64,000 bases of DNA from Candidatus Omnitrophota bacterium (GCA_043826565.1 JBDRPX010000038.1:6334-70333), one strand, 5' to 3'. Counted from the stretch's first letter, positions 1,250-35,540 are shown. Program-made: numbers and translations. Notes: generated by a model from the sequence alone, not told the origin.

Positions 1250-2226
1250 GTCAAAAAGAAGTCAATAAAATCAGCGGAGTTTTAAAAGACGTTTTCTCTC
1301 CGGTCTTGAGGCTGGCGGATAAACAGAATAAGTTATTAGAAGATAATGATGTCCTGTTTTTTTACTTGCAGGTGAGCGAGGGGGATAATGAAAAACTATT
1401 AAAATATCGAGAACTATTTAACGAGAGACTTGGTTTGTATAAAAAAATCGATAAAATTTTTAAGGATAAGGGAATTGAATTTATCACGATTAAATCATTT
1501 TTGCAATTTCCTTTTGTTGATAGTGATATAGATATTCTGGTCTTAGATTATCATAAGAGCAAGAAAGTTTTAAAAGATGCTGGCTTTCGGTTGAAATATA
1601 ATTTAAGTAATTTACGTGAGCCGGATAAATGTGTTATGCAAGATGGTAATTTGCGCGTAGTCTGTCACCTGCATGAAAACTTGTCATGGAATGGAATCGT
1701 GACGATTAACAAAGATGAAGTATTAAAAAGAAGCAGGACGATTTCTATTAATGGCCGGGATGTTAAAATCCCCTCTTCGGAAGATGAGGTTCTGATTAAT
1801 GCCGCGCATGCTATTTTTGAGAATTATCATATTAAGCTAAGTGAGGTTATCGCTTTTTACGGGTTGAATGGCAATTTAGATTGGGATTATATTATGGCAA
1901 TGGCCAGACGCTATGAATGGGGGCAGGGAGTAAAAATTTATCTATCCGGATTAAAGCTGATCTTTGAGTATTTGGGAATTAAACAGGAGATTAATGAGGC
2001 GGTTTTAGGACAGGCTGATTTTGTGGACATTAATGTTTTTCCCTGTTTTTTTAAATATAAACAGTTATTGACTAATGTTTATCATGAAAAAATGTTTAAG
2101 CTGGTCAGGGAAAGAAAAATAAAAGATTTATTATGGCAACTTTATGTGTACTACATTGTTGGCATTTTTTGGAAATACTATAGGAGCAAGGCTGAATTTA
2201 AAAACAATTTATTGAAAAATGAATAA
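1246..2226 (+). CDS. Hypothetical protein, possible nucleotidyltransferase-fold (NTP_transf_5-like)
   Basis: 326-aa ORF translationally coupled to the GT1 gene. A weak 'KS...DSDIDILV' pattern resembles the pol-beta NTase motif. No confident family assignment. Confidence 0.3.
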   Translation: MSQKEVNKISGVLKDVFSPVLRLADKQNKLLEDNDVLFFYLQVSEGDNEKLLKYRELFNERLGLYKKIDKIFKDKGIEFITIKSFLQFPFVDSDIDILVLDYHKSKKVLKDAGFRLKYNLSNLREPDKCVMQDGNLRVVCHLHENLSWNGIVTINKDEVLKRSRTISINGRDVKIPSSEDEVLINAAHAIFENYHIKLSEVIAFYGLNGNLDWDYIMAMARRYEWGQGVKIYLSGLKLIFEYLGIKQEINEAVLGQADFVDINVFPCFFKYKQLLTNVYHEKMFKLVRERKIKDLLWQLYVYYIVGIFWKYYRSKAEFKNNLLKNE

Positions 2227-22429: not shown

Positions 22430-22507
22430 CGGGGCGTGGCGCAGTTTGGCTAGCGCGCTTGAATGGGGTTCAAGAGGTCGGTGGTTCGAGTCCACTCGCC
22501 CCGACCA
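22430..22507 (+). tRNA. tRNA-Pro (anticodon GGG), CCA encoded
   Basis: Manual fold gives a cloverleaf: 7/7 acceptor stem CGGGGCG/CGCCCCG, D-stem GCGC/GCGC, anticodon stem CUUGA/UCAAG with loop AUGGGGU, T-arm GGUGG-UUCGAGU-CCACU, discriminator A and CCA. Confidence 0.8.
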
Positions 22508-22555: not shown

Positions 22556-22999
22556 GTGCTTTTGGACGACCAGATTCATTATCAAAATGATGATAACAGG
22601 ACCGGCGAAAGAAGGAATTTTGTACGCATAAATGCAAACTTCGTGGTGAGTTATTATAAATATCCGGGAGAAGTCAATCACACGGATATGAGTCTAACCC
22701 GTAATATTAGTCTGGGCGGGATATGTTTTACTACAGATAATGATTTTGAACTCGGCGCAATTTTACATATTACCTTAAGACTGCCTAAAGTTACGAAATT
22801 AATCGAGTTTTTGGGGGAAGTGGTATTTACTAAGCAGGAAAAAGGAAAGAATTCTATCTTTGATATCGGGGTAAAATTTGTGCAGGCACAAGAAGAAGAC
22901 CTCTATATTTTGCAAAACATCATAAAAGACTGTGCGGCTAGTGATAGTACTATTATTATAAACATTACCGAAAGAAGAAAAGAAGAGGACAATGAATAG
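22556..22999 (+). CDS. PilZ-domain protein (c-di-GMP receptor)
   Basis: RxxxR 'ERRNFVRI' and D/NxSxxG 'NISLGG' motifs in the typical PilZ spacing. GTG/TTG start, exact position uncertain. 8-nt overlap with hom. Confidence 0.7.
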   Translation: MLLDDQIHYQNDDNRTGERRNFVRINANFVVSYYKYPGEVNHTDMSLTRNISLGGICFTTDNDFELGAILHITLRLPKVTKLIEFLGEVVFTKQEKGKNSIFDIGVKFVQAQEEDLYILQNIIKDCAASDSTIIINITERRKEEDNE

Positions 23000-25410: not shown

Positions 25411-26621
25411 TGAAAAAAACTAAATATATTGTACTAGTTGCCGATGGTATGGCGGATTTACCTATAGAAGAGTTAGGCGGAAGGACACCTCTTGAGGTTG
25501 CTCGAACGCCGCATATGGATTACTTAGCTAAGCATGGAAAAATCGGAGAGGCTTTGTTTGTTCCTCAAGGAATGGTTCCGGGCAGCGATATAGCCAATTT
25601 GTCTATATTGGGCTATGATCCAAAAGAATATTATTGTGGTCGAGGACCATTAGAAGCAAGTAATTTAGGGGTTGAAATTCATGCTGGTGAGGTGGCTTTT
25701 CGCTGCAATCTTGTAACAATTGAAGATGATATTTTGGTCGATTATAGCGCGGGGCACATATCTACTAAAGAAGCCAGGATAATCATCGAGTTCCTAAATA
25801 AAGAGCTCTTTGATGATACGATACGTTTTCATGCGGGCATAAGTTACCGTCATTTGATGATCATAAAGGGAAACACTGAAGATTTGCTAAAGCTTACTTG
25901 CTTTGCGCCGCATGATATAATGGGTAAAAAAATTTCCAAATATTTACCGGATGGGCCAAGTTGTAATCGGATTATTGAAACTATGAACAGGTCCAAAGAA
26001 ATTTTAAATAAACATGAAGTAAATCAAGTTCGTATAGACTTAAAAGAAAATCCGGCTAATATGATTTGGCTCTGGGGTCAGGGTAAAAAGATTAAATTTC
26101 CTTCGTTTAAAGAAAAATATGGGGTAACTGGTTCGGTCATATCTGCCGTAGATCTTATTAAAGGAATGGGTAGATCCGTGGGGCTAAAGCCTATTTCGGT
26201 GCCGGGAGCTACGGGATATTATGATACAGATTATAAAGCTAAGGCGGACTATGCGTTGAAAAGTCTGGTAAATCATGATTTTGTTTTCGTCCATGTGGAG
26301 GCCCCGGATGAGGCCGGGCACAATGGGGATATGCGGGCAAAAATTACCGCGATTGAAAATTTTGACCGCCTAGTTGTCGGAACGATTATTGATTATTGTA
26401 AGAAAAATAAAGATGTCCGAGTATTAGTTCTGCCGGATCACCCTACACCAGTCGATTTAAAAACTCATACTTCTGACCCAGTCTGTTTTTTGATGTATGG
26501 AGAAGGGGTTCAAAAAGACAATTTTGATATTTATAATGAAGCTATTGCCCGAAAAAGCCAGCTAAAGATCACCGAGGGGCATACGCTAATGGATATTTTT
26601 ATTAAACAAGAAAATATATGA
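25410..26621 (+). CDS. Cofactor-independent phosphoglycerate mutase homolog (ApgM family); candidate non-orthologous homoserine kinase
   Basis: N-terminus 'YIVLVADGMADLPIEELGGRTPLEVARTPHMDYLA' is typical of the archaeal-type iPGM/ApgM metalloenzyme family. GTG start overlaps the thrC stop. Confidence 0.8.
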   Translation: MKKTKYIVLVADGMADLPIEELGGRTPLEVARTPHMDYLAKHGKIGEALFVPQGMVPGSDIANLSILGYDPKEYYCGRGPLEASNLGVEIHAGEVAFRCNLVTIEDDILVDYSAGHISTKEARIIIEFLNKELFDDTIRFHAGISYRHLMIIKGNTEDLLKLTCFAPHDIMGKKISKYLPDGPSCNRIIETMNRSKEILNKHEVNQVRIDLKENPANMIWLWGQGKKIKFPSFKEKYGVTGSVISAVDLIKGMGRSVGLKPISVPGATGYYDTDYKAKADYALKSLVNHDFVFVHVEAPDEAGHNGDMRAKITAIENFDRLVVGTIIDYCKKNKDVRVLVLPDHPTPVDLKTHTSDPVCFLMYGEGVQKDNFDIYNEAIARKSQLKITEGHTLMDIFIKQENI

Positions 26622-28240
26622 ATTCTGCAGTAATTCTTCTTATTACGCTAATCCTGTTTATCTTCGCATATAAATTCTTTGGTAAAAAATTAAAAGTACT
26701 TTTTGGTGTCGATCCTAATCGAAGGACACCGGCGTATAGTTCATTTGATGGAATCGACTATGTTCCTGCCCGGCATTGGACAATGCTTTTTGGACATCAT
26801 TTTGCCAGTATTGCTGGCGCCGGACCGATTATTGGTCCGGTTATCGCATGTGCCTTCTGGGGATGGGGGCCTTGTGTTATCTGGATAATAGTAGGTTCAA
26901 TTTTTTTCGGGGCTGTCCATGATTTTGGTGCTTTAATGATTTCGATAAGGCATAATGGCAGTACGATCGGTCAAATTTGCGAGCAAGTTGTTAGTAAGCC
27001 CGTTAGAATTATCATGGGCATTTTTCTCTGGATGACCTTGATACTTGTAATCGGAGTATTTGTTTTTTTTAGTGCTAATTCCTTTATTGCCGAGCCAAAG
27101 ATAATTTTGCCGAGTATCGGAATGATTCCGGTAGCTGTGCTGATTGGCTTCCTTTTATATCGTCGAAAATTAAATCAGCTGGGAGTGACTGTTTTTGGTC
27201 TAATACTTTTGGTCGGATTAATTTTTTTAGGGGCGATTATTCCTATTGAATTAACGCAAAATGCATTTCTAATCTGGTGTATCAGTTTATTGGTGTATGC
27301 TTTTTTTGCTTCAATAGTTCCCGTACAAGTGCTGCTGCAGCCACGGGATTATTTAACCAGTTTTCTATTATACTTCGGGATTGGGTGTGCAATTTTGAGT
27401 ATTTTTATTTCCCATCCGGTAACGGCAACAAAACCTTTTGTTTCTTTTTCTCCACCGGAAGGCAACTTATTCCCGATGCTGTTTGTAACAGTTGCCTGCG
27501 GGGCTGTTTCCGGATTCCACGCGCTGGTGGCCAGTGGAACTACTTCTAAACAAATTCCAACGGAAAAATTTGCTTTTAGAATCAGCTATGGAGGAATGTT
27601 ATTGGAAGGGGTATTAGCGATTATCGCGGTTATTGCGGTCAGTGCTGGGTTTTCTAATCATAGTGAATTGCTGGCGATGATGAAAGATCCTTCGGGTGGT
27701 CCGGTAATTGTTTTTGGAAAGGGGTTTGATGCAGTGACTAAGGTTGTTTTCTGTGGTTATGGCGGGTTATTGGCAATGACATTATTAAATGCTTTTATCC
27801 TGACAACTTTGGATACAGCAACAAGAATTGCCCGGTATTTAACAGAAGAATTATTTTATATAAAGAATAGATATGTATCAACTTTGATTGTAGTTTTTCT
27901 GGGGGGAATTTTAGCTGTGACTGGGGTGTGGAAACATATTTGGCCGGTTTTTGGTGCCGCTAATCAGCTGATTGCTGCACTAGCTTTAATGGTTTTAACG
28001 CTTTGGCTGGTAAAATCCGGAAAAAGTGCCAGGTTCACTTTTTTCCCGGGAGTTATTATGTTTATTTTAGCAATTATTGCGCTTATGAACCAATTTAGAG
28101 ACAATTTAGTGCAAAAAAACTGGATGCTTTTGCTAATTTGCGGTTTTTTAGCGGTGTTGGGAGTGTTTATTTTTATAAAATGCGGAATAATTTTTTCAAG
28201 TATTCGTAATAGCCTAAAAACAAAAAGGTTAGAGCTATAA
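26618..28240 (+). CDS. cstA: Carbon starvation protein A (CstA family peptide transporter)
   Basis: 'ASIAGAGPIIGPV' CstA hallmark and multiple TM helices. Confidence 0.85.
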   Translation: MNSAVILLITLILFIFAYKFFGKKLKVLFGVDPNRRTPAYSSFDGIDYVPARHWTMLFGHHFASIAGAGPIIGPVIACAFWGWGPCVIWIIVGSIFFGAVHDFGALMISIRHNGSTIGQICEQVVSKPVRIIMGIFLWMTLILVIGVFVFFSANSFIAEPKIILPSIGMIPVAVLIGFLLYRRKLNQLGVTVFGLILLVGLIFLGAIIPIELTQNAFLIWCISLLVYAFFASIVPVQVLLQPRDYLTSFLLYFGIGCAILSIFISHPVTATKPFVSFSPPEGNLFPMLFVTVACGAVSGFHALVASGTTSKQIPTEKFAFRISYGGMLLEGVLAIIAVIAVSAGFSNHSELLAMMKDPSGGPVIVFGKGFDAVTKVVFCGYGGLLAMTLLNAFILTTLDTATRIARYLTEELFYIKNRYVSTLIVVFLGGILAVTGVWKHIWPVFGAANQLIAALALMVLTLWLVKSGKSARFTFFPGVIMFILAIIALMNQFRDNLVQKNWMLLLICGFLAVLGVFIFIKCGIIFSSIRNSLKTKRLEL

Positions 28241-28268: not shown

Positions 28269-28297
28269 TTGACATATCGCTAGATGCATGATATACT
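28269..28297 (+). promoter_or_regulatory. Consensus sigma70 promoter (TTGACA-17-TATACT) driving the riboswitch leader
   Basis: TTGACA at 28269-28274, a 17-nt spacer and TATACT at 28292-28297. Confidence 0.55.
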
Positions 28298-28375
28298 TAT
28301 TACAGGATTTAAAAAACTTTTAATTAGTTTACAACTTTGTGAGGACTTTATCCGAAAATCCGTATTATTACGGAT

Positions 28376-28472
28376 TCGCCTATTATGGGCGGAGGCAAAC
28401 CTCGAGAAATCGGGGGACGCAAAGCCACGGGTCTGTTAGTAAAGCTATGATCGCCGGGCGCACCGACAACGT
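28376..28472 (+). ncRNA. c-di-GMP-I (GEMM) riboswitch aptamer
   Basis: 'GGCAAACC-UCGA-GAAA-UCGG-GGGACGCAAAGCCACGGGUC...CGCCGGGCGCACCGAC' matches the GEMM-I signature: P2 hairpin with GAAA tetraloop, invariant ACGCAAAGCC junction, P3 with tetraloop receptor, 3' 'GC.GGG...ACCG'. Compare V. cholerae Vc2 'GGGCAAACCAUUCGAAAGAGUGGGACGCAAAGCCUCCGGCC...AGCGGGGUUACCG'. Confidence 0.7.
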
Positions 28473-28489
28473 TATAGCGTACTTATGAT

Positions 28490-28529
28490 AGCCGAGCTGC
28501 CGAGATATACGCAGTTCGGCTTTATTTTT
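28490..28529 (+). terminator. Intrinsic terminator (riboswitch expression platform)
   Basis: 9-bp stem GCCGAGCUG/CAGUUCGGC (one G-U pair) with a 12-nt loop, followed by UUUAUUUUU. It lies ~20 nt after the aptamer and 156 nt before the giant ORF start. Confidence 0.65.
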
Positions 28530-28685
28530 AATAAATAAAATAGATATATGAAAGGGGGGTGATAAACAAAAAGCATGGTACAGTCAAAATTTAGCAGAGG
28601 AACATTTATACTATTATATATATATATTATACAAATATTTTTATAACAATTCATTTAAGTTTATAACATAAAAAGGGAGGATAGA

Positions 28686-31600
28686 ATGAAAACATATTAT
28701 CGCAATTATTCTGTTTTGGTAATCTGCTGTTTCCTCGCATACGTGTTCTTACCGAGCACTGCGATGGCTCAGTCTTTTGATGATTTCATGGAGAGCGGAT
28801 TAAGTCAGGAAGTTCTTCAGGGATTATTCAATTCCAGTGATCCTATCAGCGATCAAAGTGACGCGGCAAATCTTTCACAAACCGAAATCGCTCCACCTCC
28901 TATGGTTATTACTACTTCGGGCGGGGATATTTATTTGCTTCAGGGCGATGGCGTAAAAGCTAAATTAAAAATCGATCAACAAGGGACTCTGGAAACTACT
29001 TATTCACTTGACGGTTCTGATCTCAAAATGATTAATGAATTTGGTGAAGAATTCCATTATGAATATTCTCGTGATGGACAGACCGTGCAGATTCTTAATG
29101 CCAATGACGAGGTTATTGCCACACATTCTTTTGAATTAGGTAAAGTTACTGCTTTTTCAAGTCAAGGGAAAATCACTTATCAATATGCTAATGATGGCAG
29201 TGATCGCATGATTTCCTCTACTGATGAATGGGGCAATGTAACTAATTATGATGATTTGGGCCGTCCGGCTACAATAACTGATAGTAAAGGAGTTGTTGTT
29301 GGTCAGTATAAGTTTGATAACAAAGGAAAAATAGAAACATTCACAGATCATAATGGTAGTGTAACGGTATTTGATAGTGAAGGTTTGAGACCTCTTTATA
29401 CAAAGAATGCTCAGGGAACAAAAACTCAGGAATATCGTTATGATTCAACAGGGCATCTTACCGCGGTTTTGAATAATGTAAACGGTCAGATGACGGAAGT
29501 TGAAAACGGATACTATACTATAATTTATAATACAGTTGAAGCCACTACTCCTGACGGTACTGTGATAACTGATGATGAGGGAAATCCGATACTTGAATAT
29601 GTGGCCACCGGAGTATATAGTTATGATGCCGCTGGTAATGTTGAGGCAATTAATGATGTCGGGCCTGGTGGTATTATCACCGGTTGGACTGAATATGATG
29701 ATTATGGCAGAGTTTCGGCAACCTATAATGCCGAGGGAACAAAGATCCAGGAATATGCCTATAACCAGCATGGTTTTCTGGAGATGACAATTTCCTTAGG
29801 GTCTGTTGATGCTTTGACCGGGCAGCAGACAATGCAGAGTTATACGGTTTTTGATGGTCATGGCCGTCCTAGCGAAGTTTGGCAGATCGGCGATACCGCT
29901 AGTGATAAAGTTAAGATCCAGGAATATACTTATAAGGCAGATGGGTTACTTGATGTAACTTATTCCTTGGGGATAAAGAGAGATGATTTGGGTAATGCCA
30001 TCTTAGATGATGCCGGTGAGTATGTTTACATAACTACATCTAAAACTGTTTATGATACAAAAGGCCGTCCGAATGCTGTTTATGGAATGGTTCGTGACGA
30101 AAGCGGTGAAATTGTAAATGATGATATGGGTAATCCTATTTTGGAAGTTCAGCAGAAGTATACTTACGATAACAAAGGGTTCTTATCAAAAACAACATCG
30201 TATGGGTTTGGCGGAATAAAAACAGGGGAAACAGTGTTTGATGCATATAGCCGTCCGACAGAATCTTTTAACTCATCCGGAGCTTTAACTCAGACATATA
30301 CCTATGGTAATGATGGATTTCTTAAAGAGACATCTAATTATGGTGAAAATGGAGCATTTACCGGTTATACTCTTTATGACGCAAAAGGTAAGCCAACGGA
30401 TGTTTATAACCATGAAGGAAGTCTGACCCAAAAATATATCTATGACCAGAATGGTTTATTGTTAATGAGTTTAAGTTTATCTGCGGAAGCCGGTGGTAAT
30501 GATGCAGTAGTTGCCACTCTTTCTGATAAAATGACAATCGCACAATTATGGAATAGTGAATGGGATTCTCAATATGATTTCCTTGATCCGGACAATCAGT
30601 TAACATCAGAGCACTTAATTGCAGAAGCTTGGAGTGCCTTAGAAAGTGGAGATACGGAAAAGGCAAAAGCATTTTCTCTTAAATGTATTCAGACATTCTC
30701 CGCTGATGCAACATCTCAGCAAAAGCAAAATGATTCTTTACCGGCAGGGCCGGCTATTTTTGACAACTGGGCTTTAAATGATGTGGGAACCGGTTATTTT
30801 ATTCTTGGTCAAGCATTGGAAACAGAGGGTTCTAATGATGCCGCTGCCAGTGCTTATAAAATTCAGGCCGCTGAATTTGAATTCGCGCAATGTTGGGATC
30901 CGGCAGAAGGTAGTTTCTGGGTTGTTAGTGACGGCTCTAAAGTTCAGCTTAACGCGGATCACTTAAATGTAAACACATCAGTAGTAACCGGGTATACTCT
31001 TTTTGGCGGAGATTCCAAGCCGATCGCGTCATATCAGTTCTATGAAAAATTTGATGAAAATGGCGCAAGTCTTGGTGTCCAGGAAACCAAAGTGCAGGAG
31101 TATGTTTACACATATCAGGCAAACGTAAAAGTAATAGATCCGGTTTCCGGAGAAACTTCAACAGTCGCAGTTACTAAGAATTCCGGCTTTGTCCAGAAAA
31201 CGGTTAATTTTGGTGATATCATTGATCAGGCTACCGGAGAACAGGAAGTAACCGGATATACGACATTTGATAAGCTGGGCCGGCAGGACAGTACGTTTAA
31301 TTCAGATGACCAGCTTGTGCAAAGTTACAAATATTCCGGAGAAGGGTTTTTGAAATATACATATAGTTATGGTGCAAACAAGGCTAAAACCGGAACCACA
31401 TTGTTTGATCATTATTCACGGCCGGTAGCTAGTTTTAATATGGCCGGAACAGAAATTACTAAGATTCCGCAAGAACTTATTCGTGCTTTAGGCAGCGGAT
31501 TAACCGAAGCTGACTTAGCTAATCAGGATTGGCAGCCATATTTAAAAGGTCTAAATCAGACTTTTGAATATGACAGTAATGGATTTTTAAGTTCCAGTAA

Positions 31601-34600
31601 GTCTTATGGAGAAGGATTAGTCTTAAGTACCAGCCAAATATCCGGGCTTGTTGCGGCAATGGGATCATCTGTTGGAGATGCAGCGTACGATGTTACTTGT
31701 GATTATAATGAAGACGGCACGGTGAATTATGATGATATGGTTATTCTTAATGAGGCATTTGATGGCGCGGAAATGTTTGCGAATACATATGGCTCAAAAG
31801 CCGGCGATGGTAATTACTTCGCTCAATATGATTATGACAGCGATGGAGATGTAGATAAGAAGGATTTGTCATCATTTGGAAAGACTTTTGAGAAATCAAC
31901 AGAGTATCGGCCGACATGGACCGGTGTGACAAATTATGATAAATACGGTAAAGCAGATACTGTTATGAATGTTATCGAGGATGCTTCCGGAAATCAAGTT
32001 GAGGGAGTGCTGGTCCAGAAGTATGAGTATAATGAGCGCGGGTTTATGGAGAGATCAGTTTCTTATGGAATTCTTACTGATGATCAGGGTAATGTGATTA
32101 AAGATGGTGAGAATCCGATATCCATAGCCACAGGTTTTACACAGTTTGATGCTGGCTCACGGCCTGTAGCAACGTATAGCTTGTATGATGATGGGCTTAA
32201 TGGTTTGCAGGAATCTAAAATACAGGAATATGTATACGATAAAGGGTTCCTTACACAAACTGTTAACTTTGGTGATATCATTGATCAATCTACAGGTGAA
32301 TTGGCAAAGGCTGGTTATACTAATTTTGATAATTTTGGCCGGCAGACAACTAGTTATAACGAAGAAGGCCAAAAAACAACTGTATTTAAATATTCCATCC
32401 AGGGATTTATGTCCGAGACATACAACTATGGCAGCGGCGGAGCATATTTAGGAAAGACGGTGTTTAATAAAGCCGGCAGACCTACGGAAGCTTATAATAT
32501 GTATGCGAGCAAGAGCGGCACACAGAACGGTCTAACCCAGAAATTCAATTATAATGAGTATGGTTTTATGAGTCACAGTGAAAGCTTTGGACAGGATCAG
32601 ACTTTGACGAGTACAACTTACTATAATGGACATGGAAAAGGTTTAAGGGTAGAAAATGAAAAAGGGTTTGTAATTTCATCTTATCAGTATAATGAACGCG
32701 GATTCATGGAAAAGACTCAGAGTCTTGCGTTTATTGAAGTAACTGATCCGGCGGAAATTGCGAATCTGCAATCTCAGGGTCTTTATGTTCAGGAAACTGC
32801 AATTGATGATAATACCGGAGAAGCAGTAACCCAGGGAGGATTTTACGCGGTTACCGGGTATACGACATTTGATGCAAATTCGCGGCCAACCGAATCATAT
32901 CAGTGTTATTGGACTACTCAGGGCGAAGGTCAGGGGGTAAAGGTTCAAGAATATGTATATAAAGACGGATTCTTAGTAGAAACACTTAATTTTGGAAGGC
33001 CGGAAGGCGGAGAACAGCGAGTGGTGGGTACGACCTCGTTTGATAAATTCGGACGTCAGAGTGCTTCCTATAATGAACTAGGGCAGGTGACAACAAAGTA
33101 TCAATATTCAAACCAGGGTTTTTTAAGCGGCACAACGAATCATGGAGAAAAAGGTGTTAAGACGGGAAGTACGGAGATTAGTGCTTTAGGACGTCCAACC
33201 GCCGCTTATAACCATAAGGGTACTTTAGTTCAGGCATTTGGATATGACAGCGTTACCGGACAATTAACCGGAAGTACATCTTATGGGGAGCCGGATCCGG
33301 ATACAGGTGATCCGACTATGACTGGTACGACTACATATGATGCTTATGGTAAGGCGACAGGTGCTTATAATGATATGGGTGCTAAAGTTCAGGAATATGT
33401 TTACGATCCGCAGGGCTTTATGGTGGAAACTTTGAGCCTTGGAGATGATGACGGGAGTGGAAATCCAGTGATAACTGGTAGAACAGTTTATGATGATGCC
33501 AGTAAGCCGGTAGAATCCTACACAAGATCTAGTAGTGGTGTGGAGACCAGAGTTCAGGTGTTTGTATATAATACAGCAGTTGATTTAAGTAACTATGCTG
33601 ATTATGTAGCCAATCCTGATAATTATAGTGAGACAAAAACCGGATTCTTGAGTTCAACGTTTAGTCATGGTAAAGACAATTATCTGAGTGGATATACTAA
33701 GTTTAATCAGTATGGTCAACAGACAAACTCATATAATGAATTTAATGAGCTGACTGTGGCTTATAAATATTCTGGTTCCGGATTCATGAATGAATCATGG
33801 AGTTATGGGTTAAATAGTTTGCGTACTGGTAAAACGGTGTATTCATCTTCAGGCAGGCCGGAAGCTTCTTATAATGAAAAAGGCGCTGTAGTTCAGCAGT
33901 TTAACTATAATGCCAACGGTTTCATGGCATCAACAACGTCATTTGGCGATGTTGGAGACGATGGTAATCCTACACAGACACAGACTACCTATTATGATGG
34001 ATATGGAAAACAGACTCACAGTATGAATACCGAAGGTAGTATTGTTCAGACATTTCAATATGATGATGCCGGGTTTTTACTGAAATCTCAGGGCTGGGCG
34101 CAATATGAAGGTGTCCCGGACGGTCTAACATGGTATGAAGTTCTCGACCAGGGATATGCCGTAGAAACAAGTTATACAACATATGATAATGCTTCCAGAC
34201 CAGTTGAGTCTTATATAGTTTATCAGGGTGATTCCGGAAGAAGAGAAGTCAAGACTCAGAGTTTTATTTACAACACTGGAGTTGATTCGACTAATTACCA
34301 GGATTATTTAGCGAATCCGGATAGCTATAGCGGTACACAGACTGGTTTTATGACCCAATCTGTATCTTATACTCTAAATAACGATGAAAACGGAGCTCCG
34401 GTATCTCATGAAGCGAATGGCGGCCGGGTTGCCAATGCTGTAGGTACAGAAGTAGTTGTTTCCGGGCTGACAACATATAATAGTTTTGGGCGGCCGGATA
34501 AGACATATAATCATCTCGGGCAAGTTGTTTCGGTAAGTTCATACAATGCGAATGGGTTCTTAAAAGAAACGCAAAACTTCGGTGAGAATGGTGCATATAG

Positions 34601-35540
34601 CGGAAAACTAATTTATAATGCCGCGGGAAGACCAACCGAAGCTTATAATAACTTGCATACAAAGGTAACAGAGTATATATACAATGACCAGGGTGTTCTT
34701 TCCCAGACAGTCAGCTTTAACCAGGGACTGGTTACTCAATATACAACTTATGATATTTACTCCAAAGCTATTGAATCCAGACAGTGTTTTACCGCTGGAG
34801 AAACCACGCATAATTTCCCCAATAGTACAGGGTATCAATTTGGTGAAGGTCAGGCGAACTACAGCGTTGCCTATAATGATGATGGCAGCATATCTGAGGT
34901 TACCGGTGGTGCTTTAAGCCAGCAGAGTTTCTATAATGAGTTTGGCTTTATGAAGGCATCAGTCAGTTATGGGAGAACAGGGCAGGCGACAAGTTATGTT
35001 GTCTTTGATAAATACCAGAGGCCGACTGAGGTCTATAATATTACACCAGACGCAGGAGCTAACCGTGATGCGATAATGTCCAGTATTATCGTACAGTCTG
35101 AAGTTGTTTTAACTGGGGCTGCGGCTGAGGCTCATAATTCTGCTCGGGTACAGAAATATAATTACAATGAGAAGGGGTTCCTGGTATCAACGATTTCCTA
35201 TCAGCGTACAAAAGAATATGATGATCAAGGAAATCCGTTATCTGCAGAAACCTGGGAAAAAGAATCATCCATTACATATTACAACACTGTTGGACAGCAA
35301 ACATCTACGTATTTACTTAAGGATGATGGTACCGATGGTGCTAAACAGGCAACTTACACATACAATAACCAGGGATTCTTAACTCAGGCAGTCAATTACA
35401 ACGGCAATACGAGAACCGGTTATACAGAGTATGATGCCAGTGGTAGGCAGGTAATTAGTTATAATGCTAGTAATTCACCTGTTAATAAATACTGGTATGA
35501 TTTAAATGGGTTCTTAATCGGAAATACAAATGTTCAGTAA
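28686..35540 (+). CDS. Giant secreted YD-repeat (Rhs/teneurin-like) surface protein, 2284 aa, with an internal dockerin-like pair; no Rhs core or toxin domain
   Basis: AAAGGGAGG RBS and signal peptide 'MKTYYRNYSVLVICCFLAYVFLPSTAMAQ'. Dozens of YD repeats (e.g. 'YRYDSTGHLTAV', 'YxYNxxGFL...GYTxFDxxGRP'). Dockerin-like 'DYNEDGTVNYDDMVIL' and 'DYDSDGDVDKKDL'. No PxxxxDPxGL core. Confidence 0.85.
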   Translation: MKTYYRNYSVLVICCFLAYVFLPSTAMAQSFDDFMESGLSQEVLQGLFNSSDPISDQSDAANLSQTEIAPPPMVITTSGGDIYLLQGDGVKAKLKIDQQGTLETTYSLDGSDLKMINEFGEEFHYEYSRDGQTVQILNANDEVIATHSFELGKVTAFSSQGKITYQYANDGSDRMISSTDEWGNVTNYDDLGRPATITDSKGVVVGQYKFDNKGKIETFTDHNGSVTVFDSEGLRPLYTKNAQGTKTQEYRYDSTGHLTAVLNNVNGQMTEVENGYYTIIYNTVEATTPDGTVITDDEGNPILEYVATGVYSYDAAGNVEAINDVGPGGIITGWTEYDDYGRVSATYNAEGTKIQEYAYNQHGFLEMTISLGSVDALTGQQTMQSYTVFDGHGRPSEVWQIGDTASDKVKIQEYTYKADGLLDVTYSLGIKRDDLGNAILDDAGEYVYITTSKTVYDTKGRPNAVYGMVRDESGEIVNDDMGNPILEVQQKYTYDNKGFLSKTTSYGFGGIKTGETVFDAYSRPTESFNSSGALTQTYTYGNDGFLKETSNYGENGAFTGYTLYDAKGKPTDVYNHEGSLTQKYIYDQNGLLLMSLSLSAEAGGNDAVVATLSDKMTIAQLWNSEWDSQYDFLDPDNQLTSEHLIAEAWSALESGDTEKAKAFSLKCIQTFSADATSQQKQNDSLPAGPAIFDNWALNDVGTGYFILGQALETEGSNDAAASAYKIQAAEFEFAQCWDPAEGSFWVVSDGSKVQLNADHLNVNTSVVTGYTLFGGDSKPIASYQFYEKFDENGASLGVQETKVQEYVYTYQANVKVIDPVSGETSTVAVTKNSGFVQKTVNFGDIIDQATGEQEVTGYTTFDKLGRQDSTFNSDDQLVQSYKYSGEGFLKYTYSYGANKAKTGTTLFDHYSRPVASFNMAGTEITKIPQELIRALGSGLTEADLANQDWQPYLKGLNQTFEYDSNGFLSSSKSYGEGLVLSTSQISGLVAAMGSSVGDAAYDVTCDYNEDGTVNYDDMVILNEAFDGAEMFANTYGSKAGDGNYFAQYDYDSDGDVDKKDLSSFGKTFEKSTEYRPTWTGVTNYDKYGKADTVMNVIEDASGNQVEGVLVQKYEYNERGFMERSVSYGILTDDQGNVIKDGENPISIATGFTQFDAGSRPVATYSLYDDGLNGLQESKIQEYVYDKGFLTQTVNFGDIIDQSTGELAKAGYTNFDNFGRQTTSYNEEGQKTTVFKYSIQGFMSETYNYGSGGAYLGKTVFNKAGRPTEAYNMYASKSGTQNGLTQKFNYNEYGFMSHSESFGQDQTLTSTTYYNGHGKGLRVENEKGFVISSYQYNERGFMEKTQSLAFIEVTDPAEIANLQSQGLYVQETAIDDNTGEAVTQGGFYAVTGYTTFDANSRPTESYQCYWTTQGEGQGVKVQEYVYKDGFLVETLNFGRPEGGEQRVVGTTSFDKFGRQSASYNELGQVTTKYQYSNQGFLSGTTNHGEKGVKTGSTEISALGRPTAAYNHKGTLVQAFGYDSVTGQLTGSTSYGEPDPDTGDPTMTGTTTYDAYGKATGAYNDMGAKVQEYVYDPQGFMVETLSLGDDDGSGNPVITGRTVYDDASKPVESYTRSSSGVETRVQVFVYNTAVDLSNYADYVANPDNYSETKTGFLSSTFSHGKDNYLSGYTKFNQYGQQTNSYNEFNELTVAYKYSGSGFMNESWSYGLNSLRTGKTVYSSSGRPEASYNEKGAVVQQFNYNANGFMASTTSFGDVGDDGNPTQTQTTYYDGYGKQTHSMNTEGSIVQTFQYDDAGFLLKSQGWAQYEGVPDGLTWYEVLDQGYAVETSYTTYDNASRPVESYIVYQGDSGRREVKTQSFIYNTGVDSTNYQDYLANPDSYSGTQTGFMTQSVSYTLNNDENGAPVSHEANGGRVANAVGTEVVVSGLTTYNSFGRPDKTYNHLGQVVSVSSYNANGFLKETQNFGENGAYSGKLIYNAAGRPTEAYNNLHTKVTEYIYNDQGVLSQTVSFNQGLVTQYTTYDIYSKAIESRQCFTAGETTHNFPNSTGYQFGEGQANYSVAYNDDGSISEVTGGALSQQSFYNEFGFMKASVSYGRTGQATSYVVFDKYQRPTEVYNITPDAGANRDAIMSSIIVQSEVVLTGAAAEAHNSARVQKYNYNEKGFLVSTISYQRTKEYDDQGNPLSAETWEKESSITYYNTVGQQTSTYLLKDDGTDGAKQATYTYNNQGFLTQAVNYNGNTRTGYTEYDASGRQVISYNASNSPVNKYWYDLNGFLIGNTNVQ

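Follow-up and report, generated by a model that had tools for sequence, protein, structure and literature searches.

A c-di-GMP-I riboswitch predicted to switch on a giant secreted YD-repeat protein gene in a Candidatus Omnitrophota bacterium

Riboswitches of the class I cyclic di-guanosine monophosphate type (c-di-GMP-I, or GEMM-I) number in the thousands, and many of them are OFF switches, for example several in Clostridioides difficile. The RNA considered here lies in the leader of a giant YD-repeat protein gene, within a 64,000-nucleotide stretch of DNA from a Candidatus Omnitrophota bacterium (GCA_043826565.1 JBDRPX010000038.1:6334-70333), the whole of which we call the window. Two described riboswitches are closest to it. 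Bc2, in the 5′ untranslated region of cap in Bacillus thuringiensis, terminates transcription by default and is anti-terminated by c-di-GMP, so that a collagen adhesion protein is de-repressed (PMC4933901). Vc2 of Vibrio cholerae is the archetype of the Rfam family RF01051, and its nucleotides G20, A47 and C92 contact the ligand (PMC11218506).

The window element shares its aptamer class and its predicted ON logic with Bc2, and its target is likewise a large secreted or surface protein. Bc2, however, has been validated experimentally and controls a collagen-binding adhesin in a Bacillota host, whereas the window element is known from sequence alone, has a host that resembles the PVC (Planctomycetes-Verrucomicrobia-Chlamydiae) group and Omnitrophota, and carries two extra hairpins, an insertion in helix P2 and a spacer of about 156 nt holding a small open reading frame (ORF). 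With Vc2 it has in common the GAAA hairpin, the GACGCAAAGC junction, G20/A47/C92 and a UAUG on the 3′ side of the tetraloop receptor. In Vc2 three helices meet at the junction, P2 is short and the 5′ half of the receptor is UAAG, whereas the window RNA has about 37 extra nucleotides in P2, a predicted five-way junction and UGUUAG as its 5′ receptor half. There is thus precedent for the RNA class, for the way in which the ligand acts and for a large extracellular protein as the target. We consider it likely that the leader contains a transcriptional ON riboswitch of the c-di-GMP-I class that works by antitermination.

When the whole window was scanned against the 4227 families of Rfam 15, only two matches exceeded their gathering scores, one to a tRNA and the other to RF01051 (c-di-GMP-I) at 28384-28504 on the plus strand (Infernal; 64.1 bits, gathering score 35, E 3.2e-10, match over the entire model, positions 1-87). 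In a permissive Rfam scan over the full leader no other match was credible, the further ones being CRISPR-DR11 (20 bits) and mir-73 (15 bits), both far below gathering. A sequence-only reading of the stretch had proposed this class, with a GAAA-capped hairpin at 28400-28415 and the junction GACGCAAAGCC, and had named RF01051 as the family to search with; the match was found and both elements are as it described them. The Infernal alignment places the parts of the aptamer as follows.

28384 to 28504, plus strand: c-di-GMP-I aptamer as delimited by RF01051
28394, plus strand: G20
28395-96 with 28419-20, plus strand: G-C pairs
28400 to 28415, plus strand: P1a hairpin, with its GAAA loop at 28406-09
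28421, plus strand: A47
28423 to 28433, plus strand: P2 5′ strand
28487 to 28498, plus strand: P2 3′ strand
28500, plus strand: C92

The alignment also changes the 3′ half of the structure. The sequence CGCCGGGCGCACCGAC, which had been taken for the 3′ strand of the second hairpin, is the core of the insertion of about 37 nt in distal P2, and the aptamer runs to about 28504-28507 instead of ending near 28472. Its true 3′ side reads UACU-UAU-GAU-AG-CCGAGCU and then G-C92-CGAG (28480-28504), with GAUAGCCGAGCU as the P2 3′ strand proper. The RNA is almost certainly a c-di-GMP-I aptamer.

Relatives were collected in two ways. A scan of GTDB genomes with the first 500 amino acids of the giant protein gave two loci, L001 from a metagenome-assembled genome (MAG) of a PVC-group bacterium (73% identity to the giant protein) and L002 from a Candidatus Omnitrophota MAG (46% identity), which ends at a contig end; of these two protein-selected loci, only L001 has upstream DNA. 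Six further loci, L003 to L008, came from a metagenome scan with a pattern built from the junction and the P2 insertion, which fixed 26 aptamer positions; these 26 bases are invariant in the six loci by construction and were not counted as evidence. All six gave a gathering-level match to the c-di-GMP-I clan. A protein-database search with the first 300 amino acids of the giant protein produced 830 word-sharing candidates, none of them at E<=1e-5. The alignment thus comprises eight sequences, namely the window, L001 and L003-L008.

In L001 the riboswitch occupies the same place as in the window, and the two leaders can be aligned from promoter to start codon. Across the eight sequences the aptamer helices are paired in 95% of cells, compared with 25-37% for slid controls, and P2 is paired in 98.8%. 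Compensatory, two-sided changes occur in seven pairs, mostly in the GAAA hairpin, a number reached in 0-1 of 500 shuffles; the P1a hairpin shows such changes in four of its six pairs. The covariation that the sequence-only reading had expected is therefore present for the aptamer helices. The promoter, insertion, aptamer and terminator stay together in all eight loci, which come from PVC/Omnitrophota MAGs and from metagenomes.

The ligand contacts are canonical in the window and in its seven relatives: G, A and C stand at positions 20, 47 and 92 and GAAA forms the tetraloop, A47 being fixed by the search pattern in L003-L008. From these bases the ligand is very probably c-di-GMP. The aptamer might instead sense another ligand, with an expression platform that works in the same way: either 3′3′-cyclic GMP-AMP, as GEMM-Ib does, or whatever ligand the c-di-GMP-I-GGC class (RF03167) recognizes. 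RF03167 belongs to the same clan (CL00126), and the likeness lies in the overall fold, including a modelled P1. Three relatives score best on that family and pass its gathering score of 59 with 65.8-68.9 bits, namely L001 (3678-3799), L004 (1682-1805, minus strand) and L006 (8221-8343); the window itself reaches 56.3 bits there, and with two additional hairpins, an insertion in P2 and an altered receptor it departs from a textbook aptamer. Nevertheless, we regard another ligand as unlikely, since the window falls below gathering on RF03167 and passes RF01051. The two Rfam consensus lines, from which the distinction was taken, differ in reading GACGC-A-AAGC (RF01051) or GACGC-G-AAGC (RF03167), and the distinguishing base is A in all eight sequences. 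Hence the window is set apart from the GGC variant, which has a G in place of A47 (consensus GACGCGAAGC); we take 'GGC' to denote positions 20, 47 and 92. Riboswitches of the cGAMP-selective GEMM-Ib type have an A in place of G20, whereas G is found at 28394 and in every relative, and C92 is a C.

RF03167 probably wins in L001, L004 and L006 because it models P1, which adjoins G20 only in these three loci. From their bases we conclude that they are probably canonical-pocket RNAs and that the RF03167 label is an effect of clan competition. Such labels on canonical-pocket relatives are a possible source of mis-annotation in Rfam-based pipelines.

The direction of the switch follows from the way in which the aptamer and the terminator share their strands. 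The two elements concerned are these.

28349 to 28354, plus strand: proposed P1 5′ strand UAUCCG, pairing with CG.A.GAUA at 28501-28507
28490 to 28529, plus strand: intrinsic terminator, with 5′ arm AGCCGAGCUGC (28490-28500), loop (28501-10), 3′ arm GCAGUUCGGCU (28511-21) and U-tract (28522-29)

The terminator stem has 11 bp (7 G-C, 3 A-U and 1 G.U) and a loop of 10 nt, and is followed by UUUAUUUUU. The hairpin is the RNAfold result for 28384-28530, with a z-score against shuffles of -3.1; a simple scanner missed it because its loop is longer than 8 nt. It is kept in all eight loci, with 93% of cells paired. The sequence-only reading had placed a terminator at these coordinates, correctly, but with a 9-bp stem and immediately after the aptamer, which it in fact overlaps. 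The terminator 5′ arm consists of the P2 3′ strand and C92, and the P1 3′ strand sits in the terminator loop. Hence the bound aptamer and the terminator are mutually exclusive, as both the alignment and RNAfold confirm for the 3′ strand of the one and the 5′ strand of the other, and an ON switch is predicted.

Folding energies are consistent with this arrangement. For the full element the best terminator fold has -52.3 kcal/mol and the best aptamer-enforced fold -40.3 kcal/mol, a difference of about 12, so termination would be the ligand-free default; of the seven relatives, six likewise clearly favour the terminator fold. Before the terminator 3′ arm is made (28346-28510), the aptamer fold with P1 lies within 0.6 kcal/mol of the minimum free energy (MFE), at -54.1 against -54.7 kcal/mol, and control may be kinetic. 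When only the aptamer helices are enforced, a 6-bp hairpin can still form between a second GCCGAG copy (C92 and the P1 3′ strand) and the same 3′ arm, from which we infer that full suppression of termination should need ligand-dependent locking of C92 and P1, beyond P2.

Transcription of this leader depends on a promoter that the sequence-only reading had also found, and leads to the gene that it had named as the target.

28269 to 28297, plus strand: sigma-70-type promoter, with -35 TTGACA (28269-74), a 17-nt spacer, TG (28289-90) and -10 TATACT (28292-97)
28686 to 35540, plus strand: gene for a 2284-aa secreted YD/RHS-repeat protein (ORF and Pfam)

The promoter is the best consensus match nearby (11/12 plus the extended -10 TG). 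Over all sites the consensus scan found five where 5.6 were expected from shuffled sequence, so the match alone proves little. However, the arrangement TTGAC[AT]-17-TGnTATACT is kept in all eight loci while the spacer sequences are unrelated, which is the phylogenetic footprint of a real promoter, and transcription is predicted to start near 28304. In the 156-nt spacer between the U-tract and the giant gene a second promoter is not supported, the best candidate being a 9/12 match that overlaps the start codon.

We propose the following model. The promoter at 28269-97 would start a leader of about 380 nt, in which about 28349-28507 would fold into the c-di-GMP aptamer, with P1 (UAUCCG / CG.A.GAUA) closing a junction that holds P1a, the long P2 and the two extra hairpins. 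At low c-di-GMP the terminator would form once its 3′ arm (28511-21) has been transcribed, and RNA polymerase would stop at about 28522-29. At high c-di-GMP the ligand would lock G20, A47 and C92 together with P1 and P2, the terminator 5′ arm would be unavailable, and transcription would read through into the small ORF and the 2284-aa YD-repeat gene. The folding models make this ON direction likely. Second-messenger control of the giant secreted protein through an intrinsic terminator, as the sequence-only reading had it, is thereby supported; that reading had spoken of termination or antitermination and left the direction open. The corrected helices predict antitermination, and so turn an undirected prediction into a specific one, in which high c-di-GMP gives read-through.

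An OFF switch, in which c-di-GMP promotes termination and represses the YD-repeat gene, would agree with the behaviour of many members of the class, and sequence alone cannot prove a direction. It is nonetheless quite improbable here. To act as an OFF switch, the leader would need a separate antiterminator for the bound aptamer to disrupt, and none was seen in the folds; moreover, the P2 3′ strand and C92 make up the 5′ arm of the terminator, so that a bound aptamer excludes the terminator.

Several points weigh against the antitermination model. The relatives are few (eight sequences) and phylogenetically close, and six of them were retrieved with a pattern that fixes 26 positions. Changes in the terminator helix are one-sided only, without two-sided covariation, although this is expected if the 5′ arm is constrained by a second role. 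In L001 the aptamer and terminator folds are about equal in energy. The AT-rich 156-nt spacer could hold a second, unregulated promoter, and a six-frame motif scan of the window for GGDEF, EAL and HD-GYP found no diguanylate cyclase or phosphodiesterase gene. Within the aptamer, the candidate tetraloop receptor has its 3′ half UAUG in the window, but its 5′ half is UGUUAG in the window and L001, where the consensus and L003-L008 have CUAAG/CUAAAG; judged by its bases, this departure from UAAG/UAAAG might weaken the aptamer. P2 has a C.A mismatch (28426/28495) in the window where all seven relatives have U-A. The mismatch is the fourth P2 pair and amounts to a single U-to-C change, by which the aptamer is slightly weakened; the terminator is untouched because A28495 still pairs with a U there.

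Between the terminator and the giant gene lies a further candidate element.

28575 to 28646, plus strand: small ORF of 23 aa, MVQSKFSRGTFILLYIYIIQIFL, with a Shine-Dalgarno (SD)-like block GAAAGGGGGGUGAUAA at 28551-28566; its status as a gene is uncertain

A small ORF of 23-46 aa, rich in Y, I and L and led by a conserved, purine-rich SD-like block, is found at this position in all six loci with a YD gene. In L001 (3852-3992) it has the SD-like block GGAAGGGAGGUGAUAA, and its stop overlaps the main start (ATATGA). The block and ORF may provide a leader peptide, couple translation or be non-coding. From the strength of the SD-like block, its presence in all six YD loci and the overlap in L001, it might be argued that the riboswitch mainly controls this ORF or acts through it, for example by translation-coupled leader protection, which would make its control of the giant gene indirect. 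This is very improbable, given that the peptides are poorly conserved and of differing length, that the ORF of L003 is fused in frame to the main ORF, and that L005 and L008 have no equivalent ORF, showing repeated hairpins instead. Such a layer would in any case lie downstream of the termination decision and be compatible with antitermination by c-di-GMP.

That the leader holds a decaying relic or a chance match, its hairpin being a constitutive attenuator or the terminator of the upstream gene cstA, is barely credible: the C.A mismatch and the non-canonical receptor half speak for it, and the hairpin would at the same time block read-through from cstA, whose end is at 28240, but the match (E 3e-10, 29 bits above gathering) and the compensatory changes speak against it, as do the retention of the promoter-aptamer-terminator unit in eight loci where neighbouring intergenic sequence diverges, and the unchanged module in L001 and L006, both of which are without cstA.

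The gene downstream of the riboswitch is conserved with it. YD-protein orthologues follow the riboswitch in six of the eight loci (the window, L001, L003, L004, L006 and L007). They are 42-76% identical to the window protein over the first 200 residues and share a common plan, in which a signal peptide is followed by a conserved N-terminal region, IAPPP..ITTS..G, and this by the YD repeats. The association is thus kept across orthologues diverged to about 42% identity.

As the sequence-only reading had noted, the 2284-aa YD-repeat ORF of the window starts 156 nt after the U-tract, and its RHS/YD repeats match Pfam PF05593 (E 8e-17). The protein has a single N-terminal hydrophobic segment with a cleavage-type site AMA|Q, which marks a signal peptide, and about 25 YD-type motifs between residues 125 and 2275, the repeat region as a whole beginning near residue 100. 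A central insert is the only non-YD part and gives weak matches to TPR and to dockerin/EF-hand, both below Pfam gathering. No DPxGL motif, toxin tip, sortase motif or second membrane segment was found in it, phmmer against PDB sequences gave no match, and the NCBIfam RHS_core score is 38 bits against a cut-off of 2000. With many YD/RHS repeats and signal-peptide secretion the protein resembles the Rhs/YD polymorphic toxins and the teneurin-like YD shells; unlike the Rhs toxins, it has neither an Rhs core nor the autoprotease motif (PxxxxDPxGL) nor a C-terminal toxin, and its repeats reach the last 15 residues. Since the repeats run end to end without DPxGL or toxin, we regard it as a secreted YD-repeat protein and not as a classical Rhs toxin. 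It had been described as surface or adhesin-like. The signal peptide and YD repeats agree with this, but no anchor was found, and a surface or attachment role is one that the protein may have.

The insert maps to 31701-31871 of the window (residues ~1006-1062) and to about 30600-30700. It contains a pair of calcium loops, DYNEDGTVNYDD and DYDSDGDVDKKD, that resemble those of dockerins and EF-hands (E 0.002 for Dockerin_1 of Pfam, short of its gathering level). Giant proteins with dockerins have been described as a class in Omnitrophota (bioRxiv 10.1101/2023.11.21.568195), in comparison with which the window protein is far smaller and dominated by YD repeats.

We found no riboswitch or c-di-GMP link for Omnitrophota in the literature searched, nor a c-di-GMP riboswitch tied to YD-repeat proteins, each of which is weak evidence of novelty; the same literature gave no regulatory mechanism for the large surface proteins of Omnitrophota. 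The RNA class itself is ordinary. The value of the element is contextual, and greater for research on Omnitrophota surface proteins than for riboswitch specialists, in that it opens the control of a very large secreted repeat protein to testing, in a PVC/Omnitrophota-like lineage that is uncultivated.

The RNA of this lineage also carries elements beyond the aptamer core, in addition to P1.

28357 to 28376, plus strand: extra hairpin A (AAUCCGUA / UACGGAUU), between P1 and G20, in 5/8 loci
28377 to 28391, plus strand: extra hairpin B (CGCCUA / UGGGCG), directly 5′ of G-A-G20, in 5/8 loci
28444 to 28478, plus strand: distal P2 extension, a stem of 28444-51 / 28471-78 around the core GAUCGCCGGGCGCACCGAcAAC (28449-28470)

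The P1 5′ strand lies in a 10-nt block, UAUCCGAAAA, which is invariant in all eight loci and outside the search pattern. P1 appears in the unconstrained MFE structure of the pre-terminator transcript in six of the eight. Its 3′ partner varies (CGAGAUA, CGAAGUAUA, CGGGUAA, CGAAUGA) yet stays complementary, and P1 shows no two-sided covariation because its 5′ strand is invariant. The block directly precedes G20 in L001, L004 and L006. In the window, L003, L005, L007 and L008 the two hairpins stand between block and G20; the stem of hairpin A is kept in L007 with U-A to C-G changes, and hairpin B is built from four unrelated stem sequences (CGCCUA, CCGCU, UCACCAG, UGUUU), each pairing at that position. 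The unconstrained fold of 28346-28510 is a five-way junction of P1, A, B, P1a and P2, so that a five-way junction is predicted for the window.

In P2 the insertion occupies 37 nt where the RF01051 model has 3 nt. The distal core GAUCGCCGGGCGCACCGAnAAC occurs once in the window and is identical in L001, which was found through its protein; in L003-L008 its 14 central bases are invariant by search construction. The core was considered as a kink-turn and rejected: tandem G.A/A.G pairs are possible in L003 and L007, but the C-stem pairing fails, and at that place both the window and L001 carry G-U. Pairing of the P2 core with hairpin B as a pseudoknot was rejected too, as the complementary site is inconsistent across loci.

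The remaining two loci, L005 and L008, place the riboswitch at the head of another operon, whose first gene encodes a protein of 165 aa that is hydrophobic at its N-terminus. The second gene in L008 (514-894, minus strand) encodes a PilZ-domain protein (Pfam, 31.7 bits) and lies between the genes for the 165-aa protein and a 239-aa protein; these two proteins of the second operon gave no Pfam match (L008, and also L005 at 1273-2565). The same riboswitch subtype on a second operon suggests that these c-di-GMP riboswitches control a small regulon, with a c-di-GMP receptor among its products. It is a tentative and rather doubtful proposal that a structurally distinct subclass of GEMM-I, specific to Omnitrophota/PVC, is marked by the extra hairpins together with the invariant module of about 20 nt in P2, and that it heads a small c-di-GMP regulon governing attachment. 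If so, the extra elements could tune the ligand response or receive a second input from a protein or RNA partner, and the regulon would comprise giant YD-repeat secreted proteins and a PilZ-containing operon in a lineage thought to be host-dependent nanobacteria. The lineage-specific elaborations are modest and may or may not matter functionally.

The leader downstream of the terminator contains an exact 13-mer, GGAUGAAAUAAUC, in one to three copies in L004 (~1589-1601, minus strand), L005 (1059-1125), L006 (8370-8382) and L008 (1537-1657, minus strand). Each copy is followed by a hairpin, and further near-copies occur in L005 and L008; the window does not have this module. Some of the hairpin loops after the 13-mer read UACAGGAUGU, which we take to resemble the high-affinity consensus of CsrA.

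The genes around the window element give some further context. The neighbours kdsA and kpsF imply a diderm host that makes lipopolysaccharide. A PilZ-domain gene at 22556-22999, which the sequence-only reading had pointed out, was confirmed (Pfam E 1e-13); its protein matches NCBIfam TIGR02266 weakly, at 38.5 bits against a cut-off of 68.7. The gene lies 5.4 kb upstream in a separate gene cluster and shows only that the organism has c-di-GMP effectors. The gene cstA, for a carbon starvation protein (26618-28240), stands between apgM and the promoter in the window and is absent there in the syntenic loci L001 and L006, whose riboswitch comes directly after apgM; this is a lineage-specific gene insertion or loss beside the regulatory region. 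L006 is syntenic with the window, with tRNA-Pro, a small ORF, hom, thrC, apgM, the riboswitch and the YD gene. In the window the tRNA-Pro(GGG) gene (22430-22507) is followed by the PilZ gene and then by hom-thrC-apgM, and L006 has the same tRNA, at an identical 58.2 bits, and the same gene order.

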